Source of the DNA: Prochlorococcus marinus subsp. pastoris str. CCMP1986
Lineage (GTDB): Bacteria; Cyanobacteriota; Cyanobacteriia; PCC-6307; Cyanobiaceae
Direction: 5' to 3'
Assembly (NCBI RefSeq): GCF_000011465.1
Contig: NC_005072.1
Span: 1,350,001 to 1,382,000, forward strand
DNA: 32,000 nt
Below the pieces are notes generated by a model that saw only the letters and a list, made by a program, of their open reading frames with translations, was not told the DNA's origin and searched no databases. Position numbers and translations under genes: made by a program. Shown here one piece after another: positions 988 through 25,301 of this stretch (its first letter is position 1; the number at the start of each line of letters is the position of its first letter).

Positions 988-1143
988 AATCTTAATCTTT
1001 ACTTTTACTTAACTAATTGTTAACAATAGGTCGAAAATATTAATTTGTCAGCTAGTCACATTACCTATTTGGATGACTTAAGTATGATAAATACTCCTGG
1101 AACAATTACGAACAATTGGAGATAAGAGAAATAATCGTTTCAA

Positions 1144-1515
1144 TTAAAATTTAAGTTTTGTTTTTACTCTATTTTTATTTTCAGAATTAAATTTAAAAAG
1201 TCCCGAGTCAGTAAATATAGTCAATTCATCGCCATATGATTCCTGGATAGATAAACCTTCATCAGAATCTAAATTTTTAACAAATACATTTCCGACTAGT
1301 TTTAAAGTTCTCGCATCTTTGTCGTAAGTAAGCTTATTTGAGGAGGCTTCAAAATTATTCTTATTACTTTTGATAACTACATTTCCAATAGCTTCAAAAC
1401 TCCCTTTTACGTTTTGTATCTGAGAATCAGAGGTAACTGTATAATTCAGCTTCTCTTTTGCAAATGAAATTTCAGTTAAAAGTAATAGTAGCGGGGCAAA
1501 TAGTAAGCGTTTCAT
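1144..1515 (-). CDS. secreted protein with the shared MKRLL leader; weak OstA/LptA-like repeat pattern
   Basis: Starts with ATGAAACGCTTACT. Signal peptide is MKRLLFAPLLLLLTEISFA. The mature part has recurring GNVVI / GNVFV strands reminiscent of the OstA/LptA fold (weak, from memory). Confidence 0.8.
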   Translation of the reverse strand: MKRLLFAPLLLLLTEISFAKEKLNYTVTSDSQIQNVKGSFEAIGNVVIKSNKNNFEASSNKLTYDKDARTLKLVGNVFVKNLDSDEGLSIQESYGDELTIFTDSGLFKFNSENKNRVKTKLKF

Positions 1516-1803
1516 TTATGGATCAAGCTTCGTTGTTAGTTGGCAAAAAGTAGCATTATTATTTTTGAGACATTTATTGTATTTTGTCTGTAAAACTTTT
1601 TGTGCTTCTTTCTTTATGCAAAGATCCAAGTAATTTTTTGCAAATTGAGTCATCCCAATTTCGTTATATTCTGCATATTTCAAACCTGGTCTTTTGCATT
1701 GAGAGACTATTTGTTTGTAAGTAGGTTCTTTATGAAAAAGATTTGCTTTAACAGCAGTAGGTAAAGCGACAACAGCTAAAAGTGGGAGTAGTAAGCGTTT
1801 CAT
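1516..1803 (-). CDS. secreted Cys-containing small protein with the shared leader (95 aa)
   Basis: Starts with ATGAAACGCTTACT. Signal peptide is MKRLLLPLLAVVALPTAVKA. Its stop codon directly abuts the ATG of the next ORF. Confidence 0.8.
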   Translation of the reverse strand: MKRLLLPLLAVVALPTAVKANLFHKEPTYKQIVSQCKRPGLKYAEYNEIGMTQFAKNYLDLCIKKEAQKVLQTKYNKCLKNNNATFCQLTTKLDP

Positions 1804-2031
1804 TCAATCTTCTGCATCTTCAAATTCTCTTAGCAAACGAAAAGTTTTGGAAATAAAAGGAAAGATCCAAACAAACAAACCTACTACTGTTATCAAAGCG
1901 ACAAGAAAACCCAAAATTGCTAAGAATCCACCAGTTGCATCTCCTTCGTAAAAGCGATCAAGTCCAATTGGAGCACCAACTCCTAAAAGGAAGAGTCTTG
2001 TTAAAGTTTGTTTTTCTTTTTTTCTCAACAT
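1804..2031 (-). CDS. TM2-domain membrane protein (75 aa)
   Basis: The GAPIGLDRFYEGD motif followed by a second hydrophobic helix matches the TM2 domain pattern (G..G.h+FY.G). Its stop TGA abuts the next ATG. Confidence 0.75.
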   Translation of the reverse strand: MLRKKEKQTLTRLFLLGVGAPIGLDRFYEGDATGGFLAILGFLVALITVVGLFVWIFPFISKTFRLLREFEDAED

Positions 2032-2040
2032 AAATAATGT

Positions 2041-2086
2041 AAAAAGAGGGTTTTACCCCTCTAATATAGATTAACTGTCAATCAAT
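2041..2086 (-). repeat. diverged copy of the ATTGACAGTCGATCTAAAAT boundary element, plus hairpin and T-tract
   Basis: The minus strand reads ATTGATTGACAGTTAATCTATATT, then hairpin AGAGGGGTAAAACCCTCT, then TTTTT. It sits between the stop of 2091..2411 and the ATG at 2031. Confidence 0.7.
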
Positions 2087-2090
2087 TAAA

Positions 2091-2411
2091 TTATCCCATC
2101 GCTGCGACTTCATCAGCAAGTTGCTTATTTCTTAGAATAACTTCTTCATCATTAAAAACAGGAAGTACATTCCATTCCACTCCAAATTTTGCTCTCCAGA
2201 TACCAAAATGTTCAGCCATTTTGAGATGATTGTCAGCCTTGCAAGTCACAAAAACTTCTCCAGTTTGAGGAGCATGGACTCTACTTATCAATTCAAATCC
2301 ATCAAATTTATCCTTAGGTGCTCCAGAAGCAATATATTTTTCAAAGAGTTTGTAACCTTCTGATTGAGAAAGAGTATCTGGGATAATTCCATGAACGTGA
2401 TAGTAAGCCAT
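2091..2411 (-). CDS. small conserved protein, paralog of 5592..5930 (DUF3303-like, family name from memory)
   Basis: Track ORF 2091..2438 starts at TTG; the likely ATG is at 2411 (MAYYHVHG...). It aligns with 5592..5930: F.GF....R.HA......V...A......M.EHF..W..KF......PV..D.E. Confidence 0.8.
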   Translation of the reverse strand: MAYYHVHGIIPDTLSQSEGYKLFEKYIASGAPKDKFDGFELISRVHAPQTGEVFVTCKADNHLKMAEHFGIWRAKFGVEWNVLPVFNDEEVILRNKQLADEVAAMG

Positions 2412-2480
2412 AACTAAAATTGGATAGTGTAATTTCAATCTAAAAACGATAATTTAAAAAGAATTTAATTTATCTTTAAA

Positions 2481-2500
2481 TTTAGATCGACTGTCAATCG
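2481..2500 (-). repeat. boundary element core copy
   Basis: The minus strand reads CGATTGACAGTCGATCTAAA and contains the exact 16-mer TTGACAGTCGATCTAA. Confidence 0.85.
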
Positions 2501-2510
2501 TATTTAATTT

Positions 2511-2534
2511 AGCTGCAAGTAGTAAGCGTTTCAT
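2511..2534 (-). pseudogene. orphan signal-peptide leader (ATGAAACGCTTACTACTTGCAGCT) with no gene body
   Basis: A perfect 14-mer ATGAAACGCTTACT abuts the TAA of ORF 2535..3047. The reading frame runs straight into the boundary element and dies (MKRLLLAAKLNTIDSRSKF...). Confidence 0.6.
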
Positions 2535-3047
2535 TTAAAAATCATAAGTGACTTTATCGCATTTTTTCTTTCGATATATTTTCTGCATTTCTTTTTGTTC
2601 TGATAAATAATCTTCTTTTGCTTGTTTATTAATTGGATCATATTTGGCTTTAAATTCTTCTTTGATAGCTTGAGCATTTTGTCTTCTTTCTTCTGCCATG
2701 AAATCAAAATCACCATCACTATAATTTCCACTTTTTAAGGTAGTTTCAAACAAATAACATTCATTAGATAAAGCAATATCAAATTCTTTTAGTAAGAAAT
2801 ATTCAGTACAAAAGCTTGCTAATTTATAAGGACTATTATAAAAGTCTCTCCAATTTATATCTATTCCATAAACTTCAGCAATTTTTTCATTAGTAAATTC
2901 TTTGCTTTGTTTTACAAATAATATTTTTTGCTGATAATCATCTTTTGATTGATTTATTGCAAATTGAAGGTCTTTGCATAGTCTTACTTTATCGTTTCCA
3001 AAACCAACTATAAGTGGGAAAACAATAAATAAAACTAAGCGTTTCAT
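2535..3047 (-). CDS. secreted hypothetical protein (170 aa) with a leader variant
   Basis: Starts with ATGAAACGCTTAGT, one mismatch from the shared 14-mer. Signal peptide is MKRLVLFIVFPLIVGFG. Track ORF 2531..2731 is an out-of-frame shadow. Confidence 0.8.
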   Translation of the reverse strand: MKRLVLFIVFPLIVGFGNDKVRLCKDLQFAINQSKDDYQQKILFVKQSKEFTNEKIAEVYGIDINWRDFYNSPYKLASFCTEYFLLKEFDIALSNECYLFETTLKSGNYSDGDFDFMAEERRQNAQAIKEEFKAKYDPINKQAKEDYLSEQKEMQKIYRKKKCDKVTYDF

Positions 3048-3731: not shown

Positions 3732-3764
3732 TTAATCAATAGATTTAAGTGGTGAGCTTTTCAT
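3732..3764 (-). pseudogene. degenerate orphan leader (ATGAAAAGCTCACCACTT...)
   Basis: Its ATG abuts the TAA of ORF 3765..3932, giving the same stop|ATGAAA architecture. It is only 10 codons long (MKSSPLKSID*). Confidence 0.35.
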
Positions 3765-3932
3765 TTAAAAGGTAATATTTTCTTCTTCAAGTTTTTTCTT
3801 TAGTTCTAGTGGCATATGAGCAATATCTTTTTTAATTGCATCTAAAGCATCATTATACTTTTCAGGATCAGATAAAAGCGTTTTTATCAAGTTATATTGA
3901 CTTTCTATTTCCTGAGAGGAAAATTTACTCAT
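3765..3932 (-). CDS. hypothetical 55-aa protein, not in the ORF track
   Basis: Hand translation gives MSKFSSQEIESQYNLIKTLLSDPEKYNDALDAIKKDIAHMPLELKKKLEEENITF*. It lies 25 nt downstream of a boundary-element copy. Confidence 0.5.
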   Translation of the reverse strand: MSKFSSQEIESQYNLIKTLLSDPEKYNDALDAIKKDIAHMPLELKKKLEEENITF

Positions 3933-3956: not shown

Positions 3957-3978
3957 ATTTTAGATTGACTGTCAATTT
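3957..3978 (-). repeat. boundary element core copy
   Basis: The minus strand reads AAATTGACAGTCAATCTAAAAT, one mismatch from the consensus core. Confidence 0.8.
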
Positions 3979-4288: not shown

Positions 4289-4328
4289 AAGGAGCTAATT
4301 ACCCCTTATTTTAGATCGACTGTCAATC
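4289..4328 (-). repeat. boundary element with hairpin
   Basis: The minus strand reads GATTGACAGTCGATCTAAAATAAGGGGTAATTAGCTCCTT. It starts 3 nt after the stop of micro-ORF 4331..4444. Confidence 0.85.
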
Positions 4329-4444: not shown

Positions 4445-4550
4445 TTTTTAATCCTATTATTTGCTAAAAATAATACCGTTTAAATAAATAATTAAAACTA
4501 GGTACTTTACCTATTTCTGGATGACTTCCTATTAGGGAGAGAAGCAAAAA

Positions 4551-4610
4551 CCACCAATCACTTTCCTAAATAGGAACTTTGATGGATAGTAAATTTATAC
4601 CCAAAAAGTT
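4551..4610 (+). repeat. orphan 5' module (leader plus first codons) of the 16747..17064 gene family
   Basis: About 92% identical over ~60 nt to 7073..7134: CCACCAATCACTTTCCTAAATAGGAACTTTGATGGATAGTAAATTTATACCCAAAAAGTT. It includes the family start ATGGATA (4582). No gene body follows, and the cupin gene starts 70 nt later. Confidence 0.6.
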
Positions 4611-4681: not shown

Positions 4682-5110
4682 ATGATTAAAAATTTATTCA
4701 TAGCAATAGCCTTTGCTTTAATGCTCATTAACCCAAGTATTTCTATAGCTGCAGAATCTCCTGTAGATGTACAAGAAATCTTTGTAGGTTCTGAAACTAT
4801 GGATGGTGATTCTCTTAAATATCCAAAAGGAAAAGCAGAAATAAGATTACAAAGAGTCGAGTTAGCTGAGGGAGGGGTAGTCCCACTCCACTCTCATCCA
4901 ATTCCATTATTAGGTAATGTTGAGCAAGGTACGATTGTTGTCAAAAGACAAGGAATGGAAGATCTTACCTATACAGCAGGGGATACTTTTATAGTTGGTC
5001 CAAAGACACCAAAACATACAATGGGTAATGCAAAAACTGATAACGCAGTAGTTTGGTTCGCAGCAATAGGTGCAAAAGATGTTCCAATACTAATTCCCGC
5101 AGAAGGATAA
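4682..5110 (+). CDS. secreted cupin-domain protein
   Basis: Signal peptide is MIKNLFIAIAFALMLINPSISIAA. GGVVPLHSHP...G....GD matches the cupin_2 metal-binding motifs. The track ORF starts one codon earlier, at TTG 4679. Confidence 0.85.
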   Translation: MIKNLFIAIAFALMLINPSISIAAESPVDVQEIFVGSETMDGDSLKYPKGKAEIRLQRVELAEGGVVPLHSHPIPLLGNVEQGTIVVKRQGMEDLTYTAGDTFIVGPKTPKHTMGNAKTDNAVVWFAAIGAKDVPILIPAEG

Positions 5111-5133
5111 TTTCAACTTTAAATCAATTATTT

Positions 5134-5181
5134 TTGATTGATAGTCAAACTATAATGAGGAGCAATTAGCTCCTTTTTTTT
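5134..5181 (+). repeat. diverged boundary element with a perfect hairpin and T8 directly before an ATG
   Basis: Sequence is TTGATTGATAGTCAAACTATAATGA, then GGAGC-AATTA-GCTCC, then TTTTTTTT, then the ATG at 5182. Confidence 0.75.
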
Positions 5182-5490
5182 ATGACTGCTCAAAATTTTA
5201 TGAATGTTGTTCGATTTAAATTAAAGTCAGATTGTGTAGATAAGTATTTTGAAGTAATAGATAAAACAAGTTTTGAGGGGATGACTCAAAGATATATCGC
5301 TAAAACTGGAGTTTATGATTACTGTTTTGTTGGGATCTGGAAAAGTGTAGAAGCTATTGCAGCTCAAAGACCAGCTATGATTGCTCACCTTGATGAGGTT
5401 AGAGGATTTATGGAAGAGTTGTCTCCTGAACTTGGAGTTACTGATCCTGTTTCAGGAAATATTGTTTCTAAAGTTGGTTATCATGATTAA
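5182..5490 (+). CDS. hypothetical 102-aa protein, possibly ABM/Dabb-like ferredoxin fold
   Basis: Track ORF with an ATG start. The fold guess rests only on size and the pattern V.F.LK...........G...........W.S.EA. Confidence 0.75.
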   Translation: MTAQNFMNVVRFKLKSDCVDKYFEVIDKTSFEGMTQRYIAKTGVYDYCFVGIWKSVEAIAAQRPAMIAHLDEVRGFMEELSPELGVTDPVSGNIVSKVGYHD

Positions 5491-6006: not shown

Positions 6007-6975
6007 ATGAAACGCTTACTACTTCCACTACTAGCTGCTCTCGCTATAAATTCTCAACCTGTTCTTACGAATGAAGATAGAGCTAACTTTTCAGAGGCTG
6101 AAATAATTAAAGTAAATAATAAAAATATAGAAGTAATTAAATTTAAAGTGCCTGATAAGAAGTTTCCAGATAGAAATGATGTTTTAGCTCAAATTCATTT
6201 TCCAAAATATTACAAGAATAAAAAATTATCCCTAATTATTCACCAACATGGAAGTAATAGAGATGGTTTAAGGTTCGAGAAATGGGGAGGTAGAACAGAC
6301 GAATGGGGGAGAAGGTTAGTAGAAAAAGCTTTAGAAAGAGGTTATGCGGTAGCTTTGCTTGATTCTTTTTATAAAAGAAAGTTAAAACCTTCAGATAAAG
6401 GAAAGTTTCCAAACGGTATTTTGATTAGTGAAAAACTTAACTCGATACTATCTAAGGATGAAAGATTTGATAAATCAAAAATTTTTTACTCTGGTTTTAG
6501 TTATGGTGCAAGTCAAGTATTGAAGCTTCAAGACAAAAGGGCAAACAGCGATTTATTTAAAGCAGCAGTGGCAGCAGAACCTGGATGTAACAAAGTTTCT
6601 TTTCCATTCAAATCTAATATAAAAACTTTAATAATTAAAGGTGAGGACAGCCATTATAACCCCATCGCATGCGAATATTATTATAATCTTGTTAAAGAAA
6701 CGGGAAATCAAATTGAATATGTATCTATACCGAAAGTAAATCATTTCTTCAGCTTAAACGGATCAATTGGAAAAGGAATAGCAGTTAATGGATGCTCAGA
6801 AAATATAGTAATACAATATCCAGATCGGACATTCAAACTTGCAGATGGAACATCAATCAATAAAGAAGAAGCTCAAAGAAGGTGTTTAACAAAGGAGTCG
6901 GGTGAAGGTACGACAAGAGAGAAATTGGATGAAGCAATAAATATATCGCTTAATTATTTTGATAAGTACAAATAA
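6007..6975 (+). CDS. secreted alpha/beta hydrolase (dienelactone-hydrolase/esterase-like) with the shared leader
   Basis: The ATGAAACGCTTACT start at 6007 gives MKRLLLPLLAALA; the track ORF begins earlier, at TTG 5983. It has a nucleophile elbow GFSYG (GxSxG) and an HQHGS oxyanion-type motif. Confidence 0.85.
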   Translation: MKRLLLPLLAALAINSQPVLTNEDRANFSEAEIIKVNNKNIEVIKFKVPDKKFPDRNDVLAQIHFPKYYKNKKLSLIIHQHGSNRDGLRFEKWGGRTDEWGRRLVEKALERGYAVALLDSFYKRKLKPSDKGKFPNGILISEKLNSILSKDERFDKSKIFYSGFSYGASQVLKLQDKRANSDLFKAAVAAEPGCNKVSFPFKSNIKTLIIKGEDSHYNPIACEYYYNLVKETGNQIEYVSIPKVNHFFSLNGSIGKGIAVNGCSENIVIQYPDRTFKLADGTSINKEEAQRRCLTKESGEGTTREKLDEAINISLNYFDKYK

Positions 6976-7065: not shown

Positions 7066-7276
7066 CCCCATACCACCCATCACTTTCCTAAATAAGAACT
7101 TTGATGGATAATAAATTTATAACCGAAAAAGTTTGGATAACACTTCCTCCAAGCTTCAAAAATCACCAAGGTCCCCTAATATAACTGAAGAAAAGTTTTG
7201 GTTAATGAACCTTGAGAGAGACAAGCTTGAGAGGTAGGACGGAAGCGTTTGCTTCGGTAAATCAAAATATAAATAA
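7066..7276 (+). pseudogene. decayed paralog of 16747..17064, including its 5' module
   Basis: The leader CCCCATACCACCCATCAC plus ATGGATA (7104) matches 16686..16750. Positions 7208..7249 match 16852..16892 (AACCTT.AGAGAGACAAGCTTGAGAGGT...GGAAGCGTT) but carry an indel and in-frame TAA/TAG stops (..NHQGPLI*, ..WLMNLERDKLER*). Confidence 0.6.
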
Positions 7277-7734: not shown

Positions 7735-9819
7735 ATGAAAAGAAAACTCTTTTCTGCGATATTAACAGGCACGATGCTAGTAGCTCCTGCCAGTACTCTT
7801 GCAGAAACAAAACGTATTGGTGAGACCAGAGCTCTAATTCCTGAAGCAGGTCTTGCTTTGAACCCAGTCTTAGATGGTGGTAACGGAAACGTTGACTTCC
7901 CATTTGGAAACTTTAAAGCACTCGCTACTGTTGGTGAAGTAGGAGACAACGGACTTGCACTGACTGGATATCCAGATGGACAGGCAGCATATCTGCTTGA
8001 TAACGATACTATTCGAGTTGTTTATCAGTCCGAATCTTATGCGACCATGGGTAAAGCACCAGTCCCTGAGACTTATAACTGGGAAATGAAAAATGGTGTA
8101 ACTTTCTCTGGTTCTCACATTCACACGATTGATTATGATCGTGCAAAATTTGCTAAATTCATGAAAAATGGTTCTTCTGCAGAAGGAATGGTCAAGGATT
8201 CTGGTAAATTATTCAACACAATCTACAACGTATTTGGTGATGAAGTAACGAAGGAGAATTTAGTCTGGGGTAACCAAGCACTTCCCAGTCAACGCGTTGT
8301 TCCTTTCCTAGATAAATACAAACTTTCTGAAGCCGACTTCTTCCTACAGTCCTTTTGTGGTGCATGGTATGAACAAGCAAATAAATATGGTAATGGTATA
8401 GGGCTTGAGGATGATGTATGGCTTACTGCTGAAGAGTGGGAAATCGGTCGTATGTTCACTGGCTCTAAGAAGACTGGTAGAACAGAATCTGATAAAACGA
8501 TGGGTCTTGCATCAATAGCTGTTGATGTTAAGAACGAAGTTGCCTACACTGCACCTGCTTTAGGTCAGACTGGTTATGAAAAACTAATGCCAATCAACCC
8601 TCAACACAAAGACTATGTTGTTATCGTTGGTGCTGGTTATAATCACAATCAAGAACCTGCTCCTCTTAAGGTTTATGTCGGCATGAAGGATCGTCTTCCT
8701 GATGGTTCTGAGATTGATTACTCTACTGCTAATGAGCGCGATGCCTTCCTTGGACGAAATGGCATGCTCTACGGTCGCATCTACGGATTTGCAATGCCTA
8801 CCAAATCTTATGCTTCACTAGGTCTTGAAGCGAACCCTGCCGCAAAGATGATGGATGAGTATCTTCAGAATGCTGATGCACCTAACTCCTTTGAGGGTCG
8901 TTTCTATCCTACTTCCTATCAGTGGGGTGGCTGGGATAATCCAGTCTCAGTAAACAATACTGAGATGATGTTGTGGGAGCAAGCAGGTGAACAACCTGAG
9001 GGTTACACCTTCTTCAACGGAGATTCAAAAGCAGAACATCCTGCAGTAGATCCTGATATCAACCGTACTCGTTATGTTCAGAACATGACTAACAAAGGTG
9101 GGATTCTTGGTTTCGATTTTGGTTTCATTGGAGCCACTCTAGACGCTGCTGATGGCGATCTACCTGAATTCCTTCCTGCTACTGGTATTCGTGTTGTTCC
9201 TGCCATTGATGGTGCTCTTACTCTCAAGACTGGTGGTGAAGGTGTTGTGAAGGATGGCTCTGCCGCAATTCACGTTGAGAAAAATAAGGCAGCAATGGTT
9301 TCTCCAGATGGCCTTTATTGGACTAAACACGCTGATGGTTCTTACCTTATCGTTGATGAGGATTCTGGAAACGACTTTGGAGAACGTAAGTATGTCCTAC
9401 CCATCAAAGAGTCAGATATGACTCTTAGTGAACCGAACACTGGCTACCTATTAGGTCTTGCTGGTGGTAAGCACTCCTCACGTTATGAAGCAGGTGCATC
9501 TGCTCTTGGTGGTGCATTTTCCAAAGCAACTACTTCTGAGTTCTCTGGTTCTTGGAACGTAACTGCTCTGACAACTAAGAAGTCAAATGGTTTATTCGGA
9601 AGCAAATTCTACTCTATGGATGAACTTGCAGGAACTGGTGAACAAGAGATCATTCAGGGTATTGACACTGATGATCAACTCTTTATCGGTGTTGTTCAAG
9701 CCCGTGGTGAGTCAGGTGGTGCAGTTGCTGAAGAAGGTGGTGATGCTGGTGGACAAGTCTTCCAATTCACTTTTAACTTGCCTGAAAAATCAGAGGGAGA
9801 GAATATTGCTCAGTTCTGA
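7735..9819 (+). CDS. secreted PhoX/DUF839-like beta-propeller protein (putative phosphatase), 694 aa
   Basis: Signal peptide is MKRKLFSAILTGTMLVAPASTLA. Three motifs resemble PhoX family landmarks (recalled, not searched): GYPDGQAAY, SFCGAW...DDVWLTAEEWE and SPDG....DGSYLIVDEDSG. The gene is clearly richer in G+C than its neighbours. Four overlapping track ORFs are shadows. Confidence 0.9.
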   Translation: MKRKLFSAILTGTMLVAPASTLAETKRIGETRALIPEAGLALNPVLDGGNGNVDFPFGNFKALATVGEVGDNGLALTGYPDGQAAYLLDNDTIRVVYQSESYATMGKAPVPETYNWEMKNGVTFSGSHIHTIDYDRAKFAKFMKNGSSAEGMVKDSGKLFNTIYNVFGDEVTKENLVWGNQALPSQRVVPFLDKYKLSEADFFLQSFCGAWYEQANKYGNGIGLEDDVWLTAEEWEIGRMFTGSKKTGRTESDKTMGLASIAVDVKNEVAYTAPALGQTGYEKLMPINPQHKDYVVIVGAGYNHNQEPAPLKVYVGMKDRLPDGSEIDYSTANERDAFLGRNGMLYGRIYGFAMPTKSYASLGLEANPAAKMMDEYLQNADAPNSFEGRFYPTSYQWGGWDNPVSVNNTEMMLWEQAGEQPEGYTFFNGDSKAEHPAVDPDINRTRYVQNMTNKGGILGFDFGFIGATLDAADGDLPEFLPATGIRVVPAIDGALTLKTGGEGVVKDGSAAIHVEKNKAAMVSPDGLYWTKHADGSYLIVDEDSGNDFGERKYVLPIKESDMTLSEPNTGYLLGLAGGKHSSRYEAGASALGGAFSKATTSEFSGSWNVTALTTKKSNGLFGSKFYSMDELAGTGEQEIIQGIDTDDQLFIGVVQARGESGGAVAEEGGDAGGQVFQFTFNLPEKSEGENIAQF

Positions 9820-9862
9820 TTTTAAAACTAAATTAAGCAAATAAAAATTGCGACTTTATAAG

Positions 9863-9903
9863 ACCTATAAACTCATTAATTTAGTGAGTTTATAGGTTTT
9901 TTA
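9863..9903 (+). terminator. rho-independent terminator of the 694-aa gene
   Basis: 13-bp stem ACCTATAAACTCA (9863-9875) / TGAGTTTATAGGT (9885-9897), followed by a T-run. Confidence 0.85.
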
Positions 9904-10009: not shown

Positions 10010-10168
10010 TTACTGTAATGGATAATTTAAATAAGCATATTTGTACATTTTCCTATAATCATCATGCAATCTTTCAGTTGCTAACTTTCTATTTTCCATT
10101 CCATCTCTAATCAAATCCATTTCATGGAAGTTTTGATTTAGGATTGTGAAAGGAGTAATGAGTTTCAT
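10010..10168 (-). CDS. 52-aa micro-protein, family member A, not in the ORF track
   Basis: Hand translation gives MKLITPFTILNQNFHEMDLIRDGMENRKLATERLHDDYRKMYKYAYLNYPLQ*. A GGAGG lies 4 nt upstream of the ATG. The N-terminus is homologous to the 14193..14333 product (P[FY]TI[LI]...F....D[IL]..G). Confidence 0.5.
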   Translation of the reverse strand: MKLITPFTILNQNFHEMDLIRDGMENRKLATERLHDDYRKMYKYAYLNYPLQ

Positions 10169-10283
10169 AAAACCTCCTGTATCTACACCTTTATTGTCCT
10201 CCTATTGTTATTAAATTAATAGAGCGGTTTGAGGAACAATTAGGTACGGGAAGAGGACTAAATTTTCGACTAGATTGTTAAAT
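10169..10283 (-). promoter_or_regulatory. conserved leader of micro-protein family, copy A
   Basis: The core at 10225..10283 is about 85% identical to 14403..14461 over its first ~45 nt; the distal ~15 nt aligns only with a gap. The proximal AGGTGTAG..AGGAGG block is also shared. The transcribed (minus) strand is pyrimidine-rich (GTCCTCTTCCCGTAC..GTTCCTCAAACCG). Confidence 0.45.
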
Positions 10284-10430
10284 TGATTGGAGTAGTTTCT
10301 GACGCTTCTACTGCTTTCTTTCATTTTGCTATTTTTCTCTATTGCCATGTTCCTTAATGTTGTTAGTTTGTGACATAAGGTAATCCAGAAACAATTAGTT
10401 TGTTTGATGAATAAGCCTGGAATTAATTTC

Positions 10431-10814
10431 ATGAGAAGCTTATTAGTAATGTTTCTAATAATAAGTTTTTCTTCAAAAGCATATTCAGCTCTACCAACCA
10501 CAATCATCAAAAGTTGCTACGACGGGGATACCTGCACAACCATTGATGGAGAGAAAATAAGACTTGCTTGTATTGATACGCCAGAATTAAAAGGTAAAAA
10601 AGCTGATCCTGTTGCGGCTAGAGAAGCAAGAGATTTTTTGAATAATTTAGTTACCAATGAAGAGGTTTCTATTAGGAGAATTACTAAAGATAAATATGAG
10701 AGAACAGTAGCTGAATTATTTAAAAATGATACTAACGTTCAAGAACTAATTGTTGATGATAGTTATGGGAAAATCTATGAAAGGTATGCATATCAATGTA
10801 ATTGGACTCAATAA
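10431..10814 (+). CDS. secreted thermonuclease (staphylococcal nuclease/SNase family)
   Basis: The pattern GDT....G..IRLACIDTPE......DP.....A..FL......V.......DKY.R.VAE........ELI.....G..YERY is the classical SNase pattern. Signal peptide MRSLLVMFLIISFSSKAYS runs from the ATG at 10431. Alternative starts are at 10404 and 10407. Confidence 0.85.
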   Translation: MRSLLVMFLIISFSSKAYSALPTTIIKSCYDGDTCTTIDGEKIRLACIDTPELKGKKADPVAAREARDFLNNLVTNEEVSIRRITKDKYERTVAELFKNDTNVQELIVDDSYGKIYERYAYQCNWTQ

Positions 10815-11025
10815 AGATTCTGCACCCTAGAAATCTTATCCCCATAGCCAAAAAGCTCTTCGAATATATGGTTTTAGCTGCCAACCCCAGAATCCATATC
10901 CAAAGACAAGGAATTGAGGGAAAAAACGAATTAACAGTAAAATAATTCCTCCTCTACCTCTCGCTTTCGTTGAAATCCTTGCTGCATCACTTGAATCAAA
11001 GTTTTATACAGTAGATACAGATTTG

Positions 11026-11424: not shown

Positions 11425-11466
11425 ATGAAACGCTTACTACTTGCACCGCTAATAGTTAGTAATTGA
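11425..11466 (+). pseudogene. orphan signal-peptide leader (13 codons) running into a boundary element
   Basis: ATGAAACGCTTACTACTTGCACCGCTAATAGTTAGTAATTGA encodes MKRLLLAPLIVSN*. The stop lies inside the ATTGACAG core. Confidence 0.6.
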
Positions 11467-11503
11467 CAGTCGATCTAAAATAAGGGGCAATTAGCTTCTT
11501 TTT
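11461..11503 (+). repeat. boundary element with hairpin and T-tract directly before an ATG
   Basis: Sequence is AATTGACAGTCGATCTAAAATAA, then GGGGC-AATTA-GCTTC, then TTTTT, then the ATG at 11504. Confidence 0.85.
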
Positions 11504-11908
11504 ATGGAAAAATTTTCCCAGAATCTTCTTAGGCTTTCTCTTTCAATATTATTTTTAAGTTTTCCTATTGGTTTTTTATTCGCAGGGATTGAATATATAA
11601 ACACCAAAAAGTTTTTAACAACAAAATATGATGAATTAAATGAAAAGACAGAAGACTATATAGAGGATATGGAAGAAACTTATCCTGAAACTATAAAATA
11701 TTTTCCTTCAACTAAATTGGCAGATAAATCTCCTCTTGCAACATTACTTTTAACAAAATCAACTATGAAATTATTTCAAGTTTCCGAATATCTAAAATAT
11801 AAAAATTCAATTTTGGATACTACTGACGAGATATCAAAGACTGTTGATGCTTTTATAGAAGAATTAAGAATTGAATATCCCGAATTAAATAGAATACTTC
11901 CTAGATGA
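11504..11908 (+). CDS. hypothetical membrane-anchored protein (134 aa)
   Basis: Track ORF with an N-terminal hydrophobic segment. Its TGA overlaps the next ATG (ATGA). Confidence 0.7.
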   Translation: MEKFSQNLLRLSLSILFLSFPIGFLFAGIEYINTKKFLTTKYDELNEKTEDYIEDMEETYPETIKYFPSTKLADKSPLATLLLTKSTMKLFQVSEYLKYKNSILDTTDEISKTVDAFIEELRIEYPELNRILPR

Positions 11909-12117
11909 AACGCTTACTCTTAGCTGAGCTTTTGTTAGTTTTAATTACTCTAATTTTTGTTTCTCTAAAACCAATTTCTAGAATTTATATTGCTGATTAT
12001 TTGGAAAAGATATCCTTATTTTTATTTAGAACAGTAAGCGATGAAGATTTAAATAAGTGGTATGAGAAAAGAGATAAGTATGAATTACTTGAGGAATCAG
12101 GAGGAACTGCTTACTAA
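11905..12117 (+). CDS. small protein with the shared leader used as a TM anchor (70 aa)
   Basis: Starts with ATGAAACGCTTACT (MKRLLLAELLLVLITLIFV). Its stop TAA lies inside the next boundary element. Confidence 0.7.
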   Translation: MKRLLLAELLLVLITLIFVSLKPISRIYIADYLEKISLFLFRTVSDEDLNKWYEKRDKYELLEESGGTAY

Positions 12118-12136
12118 TTGACAGTCGATCTAAAAT
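12116..12136 (+). repeat. boundary element core copy
   Basis: AATTGACAGTCGATCTAAAAT is identical to 11461..11481. Confidence 0.85.
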
Positions 12137-14583: not shown

Positions 14584-14604
14584 GATTGACAGTGGATCTA
14601 AAAT
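14584..14604 (+). repeat. boundary element core copy
   Basis: GATTGACAGTGGATCTAAAAT has one mismatch from the consensus. Confidence 0.8.
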
Positions 14605-15033: not shown

Positions 15034-15185
15034 TTGACTAAATAAATTACGTTACATCTTTATGTTGTTCTGAATCTTATTTAGTGATTCCAATTCAGAA
15101 TCAATAAATTAATTAATAGTCATTAATAGATTATTGATTGGATTAGAGGTATTCACTATGATTCCTGTTAATTAACTCTTTATTT

Positions 15186-16526
15186 TTGAGAAGGTTTCTA
15201 CTCCCATTACTAGCTGCTCTCGCTCTACCTACTACTGTTAATGCAGCTAAAATTAACTGTAATTCTCCTGTTTGGAAAAATAAACCGCAATGCAAAAATG
15301 AATCTGTAAGAAAAAAGGTAAAAACAATACTTGATGAAGAAACAGGTTTAATGGTTATAGAAATGGAAGCAGATATACCTTGGAGATCGACATCTAATCC
15401 AAAAATTCCTTATAAAAATATAGTTAAGCTTACGTCGAGCTTTGACGGAAGTTCGGAATATGTTGTTTTTGATAGAGACTACATAAGAGGTGCATTTAGT
15501 AGATTTACTGTTTTAACTAAATGGAGTTCAGATTATTTAAGTGCAACATATTTTTTAGAAAATGATTGTTCCTATGTTTTTAATACATGTTTTGGTGGTA
15601 TTTCTGATTCTGGTGAATTAGATTCTCCAATTGAATTAAAATTCAATAACCGAAATTACACATTATATGGAGAGGATGGTCAATTCTCATTACCCAATGA
15701 TTTTATTGAACAAGTAAAAAATACAAGATCATATACCGGGCTCTCGGTAAGAGGTAACAATAGAATTATTCCTATCGGAGAAGTTACTGTTGAGAAATTA
15801 TCTGAGTTGTATAAAAAAGTTTTAAAAAAATGGACAATACCAGAAATTAACTTCAAAGCTAAAAATATAAAATTAAAACCATCAATTAAAGAGATAGCAG
15901 GAAATACACTTCCAAAAGTTGTGACTGTAAGGTCAAGCAGAGGTCAAGGTACGGGCTTTTTTATAAATGATGAGGGTTTACTAATTACAAATAGACATGT
16001 AATTGGCGCTGGAAAAAAAATTGATATCCAAATAGAAACTGCTACTGGATCAGAATTAACTGCGAAAACCATTTATGTAAGTAGAAAAGATGACTTTGCA
16101 ATTCTTAAGGTTCAAGGGGAGATTTTTCCCGAGGCTCTTCCAATTTGTTATGCAACCTATCCTACTGCTGGAGAAGAAGTAATAGCTATTGGTTCACCGA
16201 GGGGATTAACAAATACAATTACTAGAGGAATTGTAAGTGCATTTAGGAGATCAGGAAATTATTCAGAGGGTTTTGCTACAACTGGCACCTCATTAATACA
16301 AACTGATGCTGCAATAAATCCAGGTAATAGTGGTGGTCCTTTATTAAATGAGAATGGAGAAGTTATTGGTATAAATACTTTCGGAGCAACCTCATCTGGT
16401 GGGTCTCAAGGTTTAAATTTTGCTGTTTCAATGATTGATGTACTTCAGCAATTAAATGTTAGAAAACCTGATCTAAAAAATATAAATGAATCATCTATAA
16501 ATGAATGTGGAAATATTAAATTGTGA
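15186..16526 (+). CDS. secreted trypsin-like serine protease (S1C/DegP-type catalytic domain, no PDZ) with a novel ~240-aa N-terminal domain
   Basis: TTG start. The leader MRRFLLPLLAALALPTTVNA shares CTAGCTGCTCTCGCT with the 6007 leader. The catalytic triad contexts are ITNRHV, DFAILKV and TDAAINPGNSGGPLLN. Confidence 0.9.
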   Translation: MRRFLLPLLAALALPTTVNAAKINCNSPVWKNKPQCKNESVRKKVKTILDEETGLMVIEMEADIPWRSTSNPKIPYKNIVKLTSSFDGSSEYVVFDRDYIRGAFSRFTVLTKWSSDYLSATYFLENDCSYVFNTCFGGISDSGELDSPIELKFNNRNYTLYGEDGQFSLPNDFIEQVKNTRSYTGLSVRGNNRIIPIGEVTVEKLSELYKKVLKKWTIPEINFKAKNIKLKPSIKEIAGNTLPKVVTVRSSRGQGTGFFINDEGLLITNRHVIGAGKKIDIQIETATGSELTAKTIYVSRKDDFAILKVQGEIFPEALPICYATYPTAGEEVIAIGSPRGLTNTITRGIVSAFRRSGNYSEGFATTGTSLIQTDAAINPGNSGGPLLNENGEVIGINTFGATSSGGSQGLNFAVSMIDVLQQLNVRKPDLKNINESSINECGNIKL

Positions 16527-16746: not shown

Positions 16747-17064
16747 ATGGACAGAACACAACAAATTAAGGATGCTCATCCTTGGCTTTCCTACGAAGAA
16801 GTAGTGAAGGTAATTCTCTATCATCATCATCAGGGTTCAATGTGGATTCATAACCTTCAGAGAGACAAGCTTGAGAGGTCGATGGAAGCGTTCACAAAGC
16901 TTCTTAAATCAAAGAGCATGAAAGCCCTTAAACCCTTTGTAGAGTACGTTCTAGGCGTCTACTACAGGGGTGTAGATAAGTATGGTAATCAGACAGAAGT
17001 AAACAAAGAGTCCTTCGAGAATAGATGGCATAAAGCAAGAACAATTTTACTAACAAGCAAATAA
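16747..17064 (+). CDS. hypothetical 105-aa protein (intact member of the family with decayed copies at 7066 and 4551)
   Basis: Track ORF. It is richer in G+C than the surrounding island. No family recognised. Confidence 0.75.
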   Translation: MDRTQQIKDAHPWLSYEEVVKVILYHHHQGSMWIHNLQRDKLERSMEAFTKLLKSKSMKALKPFVEYVLGVYYRGVDKYGNQTEVNKESFENRWHKARTILLTSK

Positions 17065-20998: not shown

Positions 20999-21537
20999 AT
21001 TTTATCCAAGTAGACACCATCTTCTCCATCAACTTCTTTTAAACTTAAATAAACAATTTCCTTTTTGCTAGTCGGAACTTTTCTTCCGCAAAAATCAGGC
21101 TGAATTGGTAATTCTCTATGACCTCTATCAATCATTACCAATAACATAATACTTTTTGGTCTTCCCCATAAAAGAAGAGCCTCAATTGCAGCTCGAATTG
21201 TTCTTCCTGTATAAATGACATCATCAATTAAAACAATATCTTTTTTTTCTATAGATGTAGGAAAATCAGTTGCCTCTATTAAACGAGTTCCAACTCTATT
21301 TTGATCATCTCTATAAAAAGTTGGGTCAATTATTCCTTTTTTTACATCAACGCCTGTTTTATCCAACATTTCTTTTCTCAAAACTTCAGCGAGATGAACT
21401 CCTCTCGTAGGGATACCAACCAATAAGAGATTTTCTAAATTTGAGATCTTTTCTATAATTTCGAAAGTTAGTCTAGAGAAAGTTTTTCTTAGCTCATCTT
21501 CAGTAAGTATTATGATTTTTTTATCTGGTTTGGACAT
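20995..21537 (-). CDS. pyrR: bifunctional pyrimidine regulatory protein / uracil phosphoribosyltransferase
   Basis: It has the PRPP-binding loop VLIDDVIYTGRTIRAA and RGHRELPI, with typical PyrR length. It overlaps the convergent upstream gene by 4 nt. Confidence 0.93.
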   Translation of the reverse strand: MSKPDKKIIILTEDELRKTFSRLTFEIIEKISNLENLLLVGIPTRGVHLAEVLRKEMLDKTGVDVKKGIIDPTFYRDDQNRVGTRLIEATDFPTSIEKKDIVLIDDVIYTGRTIRAAIEALLLWGRPKSIMLLVMIDRGHRELPIQPDFCGRKVPTSKKEIVYLSLKEVDGEDGVYLDKI

Positions 21538-21676
21538 GATTCATCTAAAAATTAACTTTATTCAATATCCTTAATAAATTAGCAAAAGCTAACTAAATTA
21601 CATATAAATTGTATGGAACAGCTTTTACGGCTAAATTAAAGATTACTTCTTTAAAACCATGCATTTTAATTAAGAG

Positions 21677-23299
21677 ATGTCAAAGTTTAGCAGCAAGAAT
21701 ATAAATAAAACAAAAGTTCCTGAGAGTCCAGTGGTTCTAGCAATTCTGGACGGATGGGGACATCGTGAAGAGAATTTAGATAATGCCATAAAAAATGCCA
21801 ATACTCCTATAATGGATTCTTTATGGCACGCTTATCCTCATACTCTTATTAATGCGAGCGGAGCTGATGTAGGTTTACCCAATGGTCAAATGGGTAATTC
21901 CGAAGTAGGGCATCTCACGATTGGATCAGGGAGAATCATTCAACAAGAACTTGTAAGAATTACAAATGTTGTGAAAAACAACCAATTAACTCAAGTAAAT
22001 GAGTTAAAGGAAATGGCTAATTCAATTAAGAAAAAAAAGGGTACCTTACACATAACTGGTCTATGTTCAGATGGAGGGGTTCATAGCCACATTGATCACT
22101 TATTAGGATTAATAAAATGGGCTTCAGAAGAACATATAGAAAAAGTAGCTATTCACATTATTACCGATGGTAGAGATACTCCAGCAAAAAGTGCTTATAA
22201 ATACATAAGACAAATAGAAGATTGCATAAAGAAATTTAAAGTAGGAGAAATAGCATCTATATGCGGAAGATATTGGATAATGGATAGAAATTTAATATGG
22301 GAAAGAACAGAAAAAGCTTTTGTAAATTTAACTGATCCAAATGGCAAAAAAATTGACATTTCCCCTGCAGATTATTTAAATAAAAGTTATAACGCAAATA
22401 TTACAGATGAATTCTTAGAGCCTATAAGAATATCTAAAGACTTTTTAAAAGATGAAGATAGTTTAATTTGTTTTAACTTCCGACCTGATAGGGCCAGACA
22501 AATAATAAAAGCTCTTTCGGAAAAAGAATTTGATAATTTTAAAAGAAAAAGTATCCCTGATGTAGATATATTAACTTTCACTCAATACGAAGCAAATTTA
22601 CCAGTTAAAATAGCTTTTCCTCCTGAGTCTCTCAATAACTTTATTGGCCAAATAGTTTCAGAAAATGGACTTAAGCAATACAGAACAGCAGAGACCGAAA
22701 AATATCCACATGTTACTTATTTTTTTAATGGAGGAGTAGAAGTCCCCTCGCCAGGAGAACAAAGACATTTAATTCCTTCGCCAAGAGTTGCAACTTATGA
22801 TATGGCACCGGAAATGTCTGCCGAAGAATTAACTATTAGTTGCTCAAATGCTATAAAAACTGGACAGTATTCTTTTGTAGTTATAAATTTTGCTAATCCT
22901 GACATGGTTGGACATACAGGTAATATGGCCGCAGCTATAAAGGCCATCGAAACCGTCGATAGATGTATAGGTAAGATAGTAAATGCTACAGGAGAAATGG
23001 GAGGCAGTATTCTTATTACTGCAGATCATGGCAATGCTGAACTGATGAAAGGTCCTGATGGAGAACCCTGGACAGCTCACACTATTAATAAAGTCCCCTT
23101 AATTTTTATTGAAGGTGAGAAAAGAAAAATTCCAAATATGGGAAATGAGATTTATTTGAGAGAAAATGCTGGATTAGCAGATATTGCTCCAACATTATTG
23201 CAATTATTAAATCTTCCTATTCCAAAAGAGATGACAGGAAAATCACTTATTAAAGAAATCGAATTAAAAGGATTTAATAAAGTCGTTCAACATGTTTAA
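21677..23299 (+). CDS. gpmI: 2,3-bisphosphoglycerate-independent phosphoglycerate mutase
   Basis: [39 protein letters not shown] and TADHGNAE are iPGM signatures. Confidence 0.95.
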
Positions 23300-23324
23300 A
23301 TTAGATATATAACAAATACAAAAT

Positions 23325-23549
23325 ATGAGTCAAATATTTACTTGGATATGGGTTAGTTCTGGAATACTACTAATACTTTTAGTTCTACTTCATAGTCCCA
23401 AAGGCGATGGTATGGGAGGAATAGCAGCTAGTGGAAGCTCAATGTTTACTAGCGCCAGCAGCGCTGAAGCATCCCTAAACAAAATAACATGGACCATTTT
23501 AATTATATTTTTATCTCTCGCAATCATTCTTAGTGCAGGTTGGATATAG
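23325..23549 (+). CDS. secG: preprotein translocase subunit SecG
   Basis: 74 aa with two TM helices and LLHSPKGDG between them. It has the typical position after gpmI. Confidence 0.85.
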   Translation: MSQIFTWIWVSSGILLILLVLLHSPKGDGMGGIAASGSSMFTSASSAEASLNKITWTILIIFLSLAIILSAGWI

Positions 23550-23592
23550 AAATATTCAATTTAACTATCTTTAAAATAAATCAATAAATAAG

Positions 23593-23618
23593 AAAGGGAT
23601 TGTCAAAACAATCCCTTT
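23593..23618. terminator. bidirectional terminator hairpin between secG and groEL
   Basis: Perfect 11-bp stem AAAGGGATTGT / ACAATCCCTTT with loop CAAA. On the minus strand a U-rich tail follows (CTTATTTATT). Confidence 0.75.
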
Positions 23619-23639
23619 AAAACTAAAAATTTTAGTTAT

Positions 23640-25301
<1,662 letters not shown>

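Follow-up and report, generated by a model that had tools for sequence, protein, structure and literature searches.

A signal-peptide leader and a promoter-terminator repeat as probable recombination joints between genes of a Prochlorococcus island

How single genes are gained and lost in the genomic islands of Prochlorococcus is an open question. In this study, we analysed a window of 32,000 nucleotides (nt) of the Prochlorococcus MED4 genome (positions 1,350,001-1,382,000), the P-stress island holding psip1, and focused on two short elements within it. One is the 14-mer ATGAAACGCTTACT (hereafter L), which heads genes for unrelated proteins; the other is the repeat ATTGACAGTCGATCTAAAAT (hereafter E), which contains the near-palindrome ATTGACnGTCAAT and a -10-like box. 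Our reading, to which we give a probability of about 65%, is that L and E are recombination joints where genes get added, lost and swapped.

A preliminary description of this DNA had reported six exact copies of L and a seventh with one mismatch, each of them the start of an open reading frame (ORF). All seven were recovered (Table 1), against a mean of 0.26 copies in shuffled windows, and none of 100 shuffles reached seven. Every copy starts an ORF encoding MKRL(L/V), but those at 2521 and 11425 start mere stubs. The reported junctions were also borne out by an ORF check: the ATG directly adjoins a stop at 1502, 2521, 3034 and 11425 (TAA) and at 1790 (TGA), and overlaps one as ATGA at 11905. 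The copy at 6007 has no such abutment, and four in-frame codons (ATGCAGAAAAGA) come before its ATG. As for the two degenerate relatives named in the same description, 3751-3764 is a decayed L, but 15186 has only hydrophobic-region DNA in common and no 14-mer; its gene, the HtrA-like PMM1425, has its own transcription start site (TSS) at 15171. The stubs at 2521 and 11425 reach E within about 35 nt, the 29 nt at the 11425 stub are identical to 2514-2542, and two further L stubs lie in the 8.5 kb left of the window. The mature parts behind the window copies were unrelated by Pfam and BLASTP, as had been described. L and E are both absent from the core genes beyond about 17 kb of the window (roughly 15 kb, with a DnaK-like protein, iPGM, GroEL, AtpB/E, PepP and PSRP-3).

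We then scanned other genomes, one per species, with the pattern AATGAAACGCTTACTAYTY. The 120 matches listed comprised 106 Prochlorococcus loci and about 14 chance matches in other phyla. These comparison loci, cited below by their L-numbers, hold at least 137 complete L sites, namely 58 ORFs of at least 40 amino acids (aa) and 79 stubs, and TAA stands directly before the ATG at 88 of the 137 sites among the matches listed. At least 32 families unrelated by BLASTP were found among 58 ORFs of at least 60 aa in the comparison loci and the extended window. L-led domains include PDZ, SdiA-regulated/phytase-like, TPR, amidohydrolase and SNase, to which the window adds LptC/LptA-like and S9-like hydrolase proteins. 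A common start on such different proteins is not explained by whole-gene duplication and divergence. No description of L or E was found in the open-access literature searched.

The start of these genes is frozen at the nucleotide level. The preliminary description had noted an invariant CGC for Arg in a region dominated by AGA, and this held in the 42 MKRLL starts of the comparison loci that had not been selected by the scan pattern: Arg was CGC in 27 and the exact 14-mer was present in 23, whereas long ORFs of related island DNA use CGC for 2.7% and AGA for 66% of Arg codons. An unbiased ortholog set came from a metagenome search whose query was restricted to the mature part of the 95-aa protein encoded at 1516-1803, a protein also encoded on CP138976.1, on JNAG01000005.1 and in hundreds of sequencing runs. 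The results showed that 12 of the 15 loci kept the exact 14-mer, which agrees with the proposed lack of free synonymous variation in the first codons. These orthologs stand behind at least nine different upstream sequences, almost always with the stop adjoining the ATG. Two that lie behind E and its hairpin start with ATGCGTAAATTATTA instead, and one has a lipoprotein-type leader.

The 14-mer is also linked to the stop-ATG junction. A stop adjoins the ATG in 74% of L ORFs compared with 13% of other ORFs, while signal-peptide genes behind E encode a similar peptide in ordinary codons (e.g. ATGAGAAAGAGATTTTTA, GTGAAAAGATTT); they start with ATGAGAAAGAGATTT, GTGAAAAGATTT or ATGCGTAAATTA, and never with the 14-mer. 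At six of the seven window copies, the arrangement is that of a translationally coupled pair, with TAA-ATG, TGA-ATG or ATGA and no TSS at L. The RNA of the junction is unstructured: its folding energy is -1.9 kcal/mol at both 1790 and 1502, no better than shuffles, and the mean fold was -4.1 over 46 L starts compared with -5.5 over 549 other starts (p = 0.005), despite the higher G+C at L.

The peptide encoded from L onwards is MKRLLLPLLAALALPTAVNA, with a lipoprotein variant MKRLLLAPLLL..FGC. By inspection, it has the parts of a Sec-type (signal peptidase I) signal, namely M-K-R, LLLPLLAALALP and then T-A-V-N-A or A-V-K-A, and we therefore regard it as a predicted Sec-type export signal. A lipobox (L-x-x-C, signal peptidase II) was present only in a subset of leaders (MKRLLLAPLLLTLLFGC, MKRLLLTPFLLVLIFGC, MKRLLLPLLAALALPAC) and in none of the window L copies. 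Full-length leaders hold 60 nt of common signal-peptide DNA. NCBIfam and Pfam gave no model or family match for the leader, and a profile built from 22 leader N-termini matched at least 942 short marine-metagenome proteins.

Genome comparison revealed an excess of breakpoints at L. The preliminary description had suggested that synteny between strains would break at the motif, and a breakpoint was found at 61% of L-ORF starts compared with 24% of other ORF starts. In addition, 9.8% of BLAST homology-block ends fell within -10 to +70 of L, a zone that makes up 1.5% of the sequence (6.5-fold). Pairwise extension from the ATG gave 22 site groups with at least 30 nt of common upstream sequence, most of which lead to different genes or stubs, and 13 site groups with a common downstream gene, several of them with different upstream neighbours. 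In 60 pairs the end of homology lay 0-8 nt upstream of the ATG, and in most of 92 pairs it lay 14-32 nt downstream. Among 160 indel or replacement events, 55 had E or L at both ends, compared with 8.5±3.4 for random positions and 8.8±2.8 for other gene boundaries; L alone stood at both ends of 19 (versus 2.6±1.9) and E alone at both ends of 32 (versus 4.3±2.5).

The same variation can be followed at single junctions. What comes next at a given junction depends on the genome: behind the PMM1408-type gene lies the 95-aa gene, a 19-codon stub or a 50-aa ORF, and behind the 95-aa gene the LptC-like gene, a stub with E or a 114-aa lipoprotein. Four different stubs were found behind the 170-aa gene in other genomes. 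The ortholog of the LptC-like gene 1144-1515 sits behind a different upstream gene in L195, and in L158 the gene is absent with a stub left. The sequence upstream of the 6007 copy leads an amidohydrolase in L235, the gene upstream of the 11905 junction is followed by a stub and E in L194, and the decayed stub at 1130-1143 has an intact counterpart in L148, followed by E. Three L-bounded indels had both flanks conserved. In L148 the LptC-like gene is flanked by L and an L stub, and only one chimeric stub occupies this place in L158; the single L-type start of L161 corresponds in L248 to two such starts enclosing 3.76 kb; and the one L copy of L154 corresponds in L157 to two copies that enclose 2.1 kb.

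A given mature protein can also occur with exchanged leaders. In MED4 the secreted SNase-like nuclease (10404-10814, plus strand) starts with the signal peptide MMNKPGINFMRSLLVMFLIISFSS.., whereas its homolog in MIT 9107 (L193) has the L leader, so that one mature domain stands behind swapped leaders. Both SNase and the 133-aa protein were found with and without the L leader; in the window the latter lies behind a headless remnant, and its L163 ortholog carries the complete leader MKRLLLPLLAAIALPTAVES. For the orthologs of the 95-aa protein, divergence per site was 0.58 upstream of the ATG, 0.09 in codons 1-5, 0.26 in codons 6-13, 0.08 in codons 14-20 and 0.04-0.07 in the mature part. Codons 6-13 are thus several times more divergent than the adjacent coding DNA, synonymous sites included, which points to imported sequence rather than mutation in place.

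E occurs in eight copies in the window, usually followed by a G+C-rich hairpin and a T-run (two hairpin types), and often adjoins the upstream stop codon and, through the T-run, the downstream ATG. Its density in sister island DNA is about 1 per 3.6 kb (228 copies in 826 kb). We compared these copies with the TSS tables from differential RNA sequencing (dRNA-seq) of MED4 by Read et al. 2017 (PMC5607370), whose genome coordinates equal window positions plus 1,350,000; the TSS 18 nt upstream of PMM1404 thus falls at window 386, and the PMM1412-1413 operon (1354682-1355490) at 4682-5490. The results showed that the TSSs at 2055(-) and 5165(+) lie 8-9 nt past the TATATT and TATAAT boxes of two E copies (PMC5607370). 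In these two copies, a sigma-70-type -10 hexamer precedes mapped 5' ends, and E is an active promoter. Both TSSs lie in the loop of the hairpin behind E. A further TSS, 3716(-), lies downstream of a degenerate E, and the six other E copies had no TSS in the two conditions examined. The TTGACA in E is not a canonical -35 element because it stands only 7 nt from the -10 box; it may be a regulator site. Inspection against consensus sequences ruled out a Pho box, an NtcA site or a LexA site for E.

Transcripts that enter from upstream contain the whole hairpin and T-run, which are terminator-like. Since transcripts starting at E lack the 5' arm of the hairpin while incoming ones keep it, E looks like a compact terminator-plus-promoter punctuation mark. 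The published MED4 dRNA-seq data contained no TSS at any L copy. The E at 2063 thus seems to drive a single operon made up of PMM1408 and the L-led genes 1516-1803 and 1144-1515. The idea that the stub is an attenuator leader peptide was set aside; stub peptides vary in sequence as well as in length (6-28 codons), and an active promoter lies between stub and hairpin.

If L and E are joints, the arrangement would work as follows. L would be the first 14-26 nt (extending to about 60 nt) of a stereotyped Sec-type signal-peptide module placed right behind the preceding stop. L-led genes would be promoter-less add-ons that need no ribosome-binding site of their own; an upstream E would supply their transcripts, and ribosomes that terminate on the preceding gene would presumably reinitiate at the unstructured junction. 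One string would head hundreds of unrelated secreted-protein genes across the Prochlorococcus population. Because L is identical at very many sites, it would serve as a portable homology patch, and the promoter/terminator module of E would serve as a second one. Recombination of L×L and E×E would delete, insert and swap single genes or small blocks, and exchange at either element would leave L stubs behind as scars or empty sockets where operons end, and would also give headless genes, mosaic leaders and cassette-level differences between strains. The preliminary description had proposed the leader as a recombination joint; our findings support this proposal and add E as the second joint. We infer that the recombination depends on homology, as we do its direction and its vehicle, and the arrangement would have been selected rather than arisen as a by-product. 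General recombination is favoured over a site-specific system because no integrase turned up in the island ORFs scanned, L showed no attC-like structure and the junction positions are variable.

Several points weigh against this reading. Neither L nor E lay at the ends of 68 of the 160 events, so L is a preferred breakpoint but not the only one; of the two joints, E is more frequent. Since possession of the motif was the criterion for choosing the comparison loci, the homology end at +17 to +22 partly reflects the length of the scan pattern. A tract of 14-26 nt is short for RecA-dependent exchange. The island-versus-core comparison of L covers the window only, with about 15 kb of core DNA, so the contrast with core genes suggested in the preliminary description holds on that small scale and its scope ends there. 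That exchange at L and E is ongoing is a reading of the genome comparison, and coupling and export are presumed to occur. Finally, the 14-mer is the most conserved part of the homologous tract though it lies at the extreme edge of that tract, which suits direct selection on it, for translation or export, better than homogenisation by gene conversion alone. Direct selection is thus also likely, and constraint probably acts alongside recombination.

Functional constraint on its own would mean that the exact RNA is needed for reinitiation or for early elongation or export, and that breakpoints coincide with L since every gene boundary breaks. It would account for the tie of the 14-mer to the stop-ATG junction and its lack in promoter-proximal signal peptides, for an L junction less structured than other gene starts, and for conservation at the very edge of homology; moreover, 44% of ordinary gene ends in the comparison loci also have a breakpoint. 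We consider this explanation unlikely, because the stubs put junctions inside the leader and not at gene boundaries, L is over-represented at event ends relative to other gene boundaries, clean L×L indels exist, and the divergence of leader codons 6-13 relative to the mature part indicates imported sequence. Constraint and recombination are, in any case, not mutually exclusive. A dedicated recombinase encoded elsewhere, with L alone or together with E as its recognition site, would make the arrays integron-like in mechanism too. Many stubs do share roughly one end point, after ..GCACCGCT at +26, and the unit of stub, E and hairpin is nearly unchanged in at least eight contexts. Such a system nevertheless seems improbable to us, given that L has neither dyad symmetry nor a stable hairpin, that junction positions range from +14 to +60, that the chimeric L in L158 has the look of a crossover that could have fallen at any point of the repeat, and that an integrase or recombinase domain was found neither among the island ORFs scanned nor in the Pfam list of a 20-kb locus, where the only nuclease-type domains were HNH and SNase.

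The recurrence of this unit of about 85 nt at high identity in many contexts would also suit a small mobile element, similar to a miniature inverted-repeat transposable element, that inserts after stops, the L genes being secondary fusions to its 5' end. An exact L lies within 70 nt upstream of 24 of the 228 E copies, and several more of the E copies listed have decayed L-like stubs; however, most E copies lack L and most stubs lack E, and the 60 nt of common signal-peptide DNA in full-length leaders are missing from the unit. Inspection of the sequences showed neither terminal inverted repeats nor target duplications, although no systematic search was made, and we hold this explanation to be less probable still. 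The preliminary description had also raised the possibility that L is the common target of one antisense or small RNA, which would co-regulate all secreted proteins. Nucleotide conservation at a translation start is typical of small-RNA targets, but every window copy with up to two mismatches on either strand is a sense ORF start, the published MED4 dRNA-seq data have no antisense TSS near any L, Rfam finds nothing in the window, and the stubs and breakpoints would be left unexplained. This idea has no support in our results, and we regard it as very improbable. The window contains no tRNA gene and no Rfam family, so that neither an att site linked to a tRNA nor a known RNA is likely there.

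The closest resemblance among known systems is to integron arrays, which likewise consist of mostly promoter-less single-gene cassettes of unrelated functions, joined by a short repeated element behind an upstream promoter, with a cassette content that varies by strain and with empty sites. Unlike an integron joint, L lies inside the coding sequence and fixes the reading frame and the export route, and the positions of L/E junctions are variable, as expected for homology-driven exchange. An attC-like fold was not found at the L junctions, and the only hairpin is the terminator-like one behind E. The orphan modules of polymorphic toxins (CdiA-CT/CdiI, Rhs) also combine a short coding handle with variable parts, leave handle-only fragments and are swapped by homologous recombination. 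Their handle, however, joins a large conserved N-terminal protein to a C-terminal toxin and immunity gene, whereas L as a handle supplies the initial 5-9 codons of a signal peptide, with the entire mature protein exchanged behind it. The mature parts behind L are PDZ, TPR, SNase, LptC-like, hydrolases and unknowns, and toxin/immunity pairs were not seen among them.

Within the same group of organisms, the many prochlorosin (ProcA) precursor genes of Prochlorococcus and Synechococcus combine a nucleotide-conserved leader with hypervariable products (bioRxiv 10.1101/2020.03.09.984088). The L leader is a Sec signal of 20 aa ahead of unrelated folds, and neither Pfam nor NCBIfam matched it to the Nif11-like or nitrile-hydratase-like leader families. 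In contrast, ProcA has a long Nif11-type leader for LanM and short related peptide products, and lacks stop-ATG coupling. REP/BIME and the Correia elements of Neisseria resemble E as short dispersed hairpin repeats that start or stop transcription and mark rearrangements; E differs in being about 45 nt long, in adjoining stop and ATG, and in its concentration in island DNA, with no transposon-like ends noted. Tycheposons and flexible gene cassettes belong to the same islands, where small-cassette variation is what has to be explained (Hackl et al., bioRxiv 10.1101/2020.12.28.424599). Tycheposons are large, bear integrases and target tRNA genes, whereas the action of L and E is on single genes; that paper contains none of the terms "signal peptide", "promoter" and "terminator".

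A more far-reaching version of the proposal is that L and E form a recombinase-independent, integron-like plug-in system for secreted proteins in the most abundant phototroph on Earth, with stubs maintained at operon ends as docking sockets and with single-gene circles from L×L recombination re-entering any L in any cell. We regard this version as tentative and rather doubtful. If it were true, a captured gene would instantly gain transcription, coupled translation and export, and the system would be the molecular basis of cassette microdiversity among coexisting Prochlorococcus subpopulations. Most Prochlorococcus cells are without plasmids, conjugation or competence genes (bioRxiv 10.1101/2020.12.28.424599). 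In viral contigs, the matches listed for the bare 14-mer were chance matches. A longer L pattern gave 27 matches, only one of them in a viral contig of Prochlorococcus type and 24 in one conserved phage-group locus (L034, L036, L048, L267-L286; IMG/VR) on contigs of 40-90 kb, mostly from one metagenome. There, GTGATA directly precedes ATGAAACGCTTACTATTTGCAGCC in an ORF of 14-20 codons, and we rejected a relation to the L leaders as probably coincidence, because there is no stop abutment and no further similarity to Prochlorococcus leader genes. E had only four matches in viral contigs, which gives no sign of phage carriage.

Table 1. Copies and relatives of L and E in the MED4 window (window positions)
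Feature	Position	Strand	Context
L, decayed stub	1130-1143	-	reads TTGAAACGATTATT, directly after TAA of the 1144-1515 gene
L	1502-1515	-	start of 123-aa LptA/LptC-like gene 1144-1515 (PMM1406 by numbering); TAA-ATG junction
L	1790-1803	-	start of 95-aa Cys-rich secreted protein 1516-1803 (PMM1407 by numbering); TGA-ATG with PMM1408
E + hairpin	2063-2082	-	promoter of PMM1408 / 1516-1803 / 1144-1515 operon (apparent); published TSS 2055, 8 nt past TATATT
E	2479-2498	-	3' of the 2521 stub; no TSS reported, nearest 2429
L, stub	2521-2534	-	26 codons, TAA-ATG behind 170-aa ORF, runs into E at 2479-2498
L, one mismatch (ATGAAACGCTTAGT)	3034-3047	-	start of 170-aa ORF 2535-3047; TAA-ATG behind 76-aa ORF
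L, decayed stub	3751-3764	-	reads ATGAAAAGCTCACC after TAA of 55-aa ORF; then degenerate E, published TSS 3716(-)
E	3957-3976	-	24 nt 5' of ATG of 55-aa ORF 3765-3932
E + hairpin	4308-4327	-	
E (ATTGATAGTCAAACTATAAT) + hairpin	5137-5156	+	promoter of PMM1413; published TSS 5165
L	6007-6020	+	start of 322-aa hydrolase-like protein PMM1415 (annotated start 5995)
Headless leader	10960-11022	+	hydrophobic and cleavage region remnant (..LAFVEILAASLESKFYTVDTDL), no start codon or 14-mer, upstream of 133-aa ORF at 11023
L, stub	11425-11438	+	13 codons (MKRLLLAPLIVSN), TAA-ATG behind 133-aa ORF, runs into E at 11462
E + hairpin	11462-11481	+	22 nt 5' of ATG of 134-aa ORF at 11504
L	11905-11918	+	start of 70-aa membrane-anchored ORF; ATGA overlap with 134-aa ORF
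E	12117-12136	+	adjoins TAA of 70-aa ORF
E, one mismatch	14585-14604	+	
L relative without 14-mer	15186-15230	+	HtrA-like protease PMM1425, start TTG/ATGAGAAGGTTT; only hydrophobic-region DNA common

Other features of the island were noted in passing. A third dispersed repeat (..CCACCAATCACTTTCCTAAATAGGAACTTTGATGGATAGTAAATTTATA..) lies at 4550-4607 and 7072-7129 on the plus strand, with 91% identity, and brackets the PMM1412-PMM1415 block. It has 13 copies in the comparison set (11 in sister loci and 2 in the window), often behind AACCCCATACCACCCATCA, is fused directly to an L stub in L140, and may be another recombination or attachment site. A direct repeat of 28 nt (AACCTTSAGAGAGACAAGCTTGAGAGGT, 96% identical) occurs at 7208-7235 and 16852-16879 (plus strand), 9.6 kb apart, near the transition from island to core. 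The 694-aa protein at 7735-9819 (plus strand) lies at the MED4 coordinates assigned to PMM1416, that is, psip1 (PMC5607370 tables). Its G+C content of 40-42% against a background of 30% fits a foreign origin. It starts MKRKLF and uses a signal peptide of its own instead of L; the published TSSs include several internal and antisense ones, and a perfect 19-bp hairpin terminator lies behind it (9860-9900). The island maximum in the published data is an orphan TSS at 10185(-), with about 21,000-24,000 reads. Downstream of it, at a distance of 17 nt, begins an unannotated 52-aa ORF (10010-10168) that has an AGGAGG ribosome-binding site; the product at 10010-10185 (minus strand) could be a small protein or a non-coding RNA.

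For the gain and loss of single genes in islands, a joint that both codes and provides homology offers a testable mechanism at the single-gene scale. Such a joint would also account for the exported proteome being the most lineage-specific fraction (PMC4949707). L and E can be used as tags to delimit cassettes in metagenomes, and they might serve as expression and secretion handles in Prochlorococcus, an organism with almost no genetic tools.

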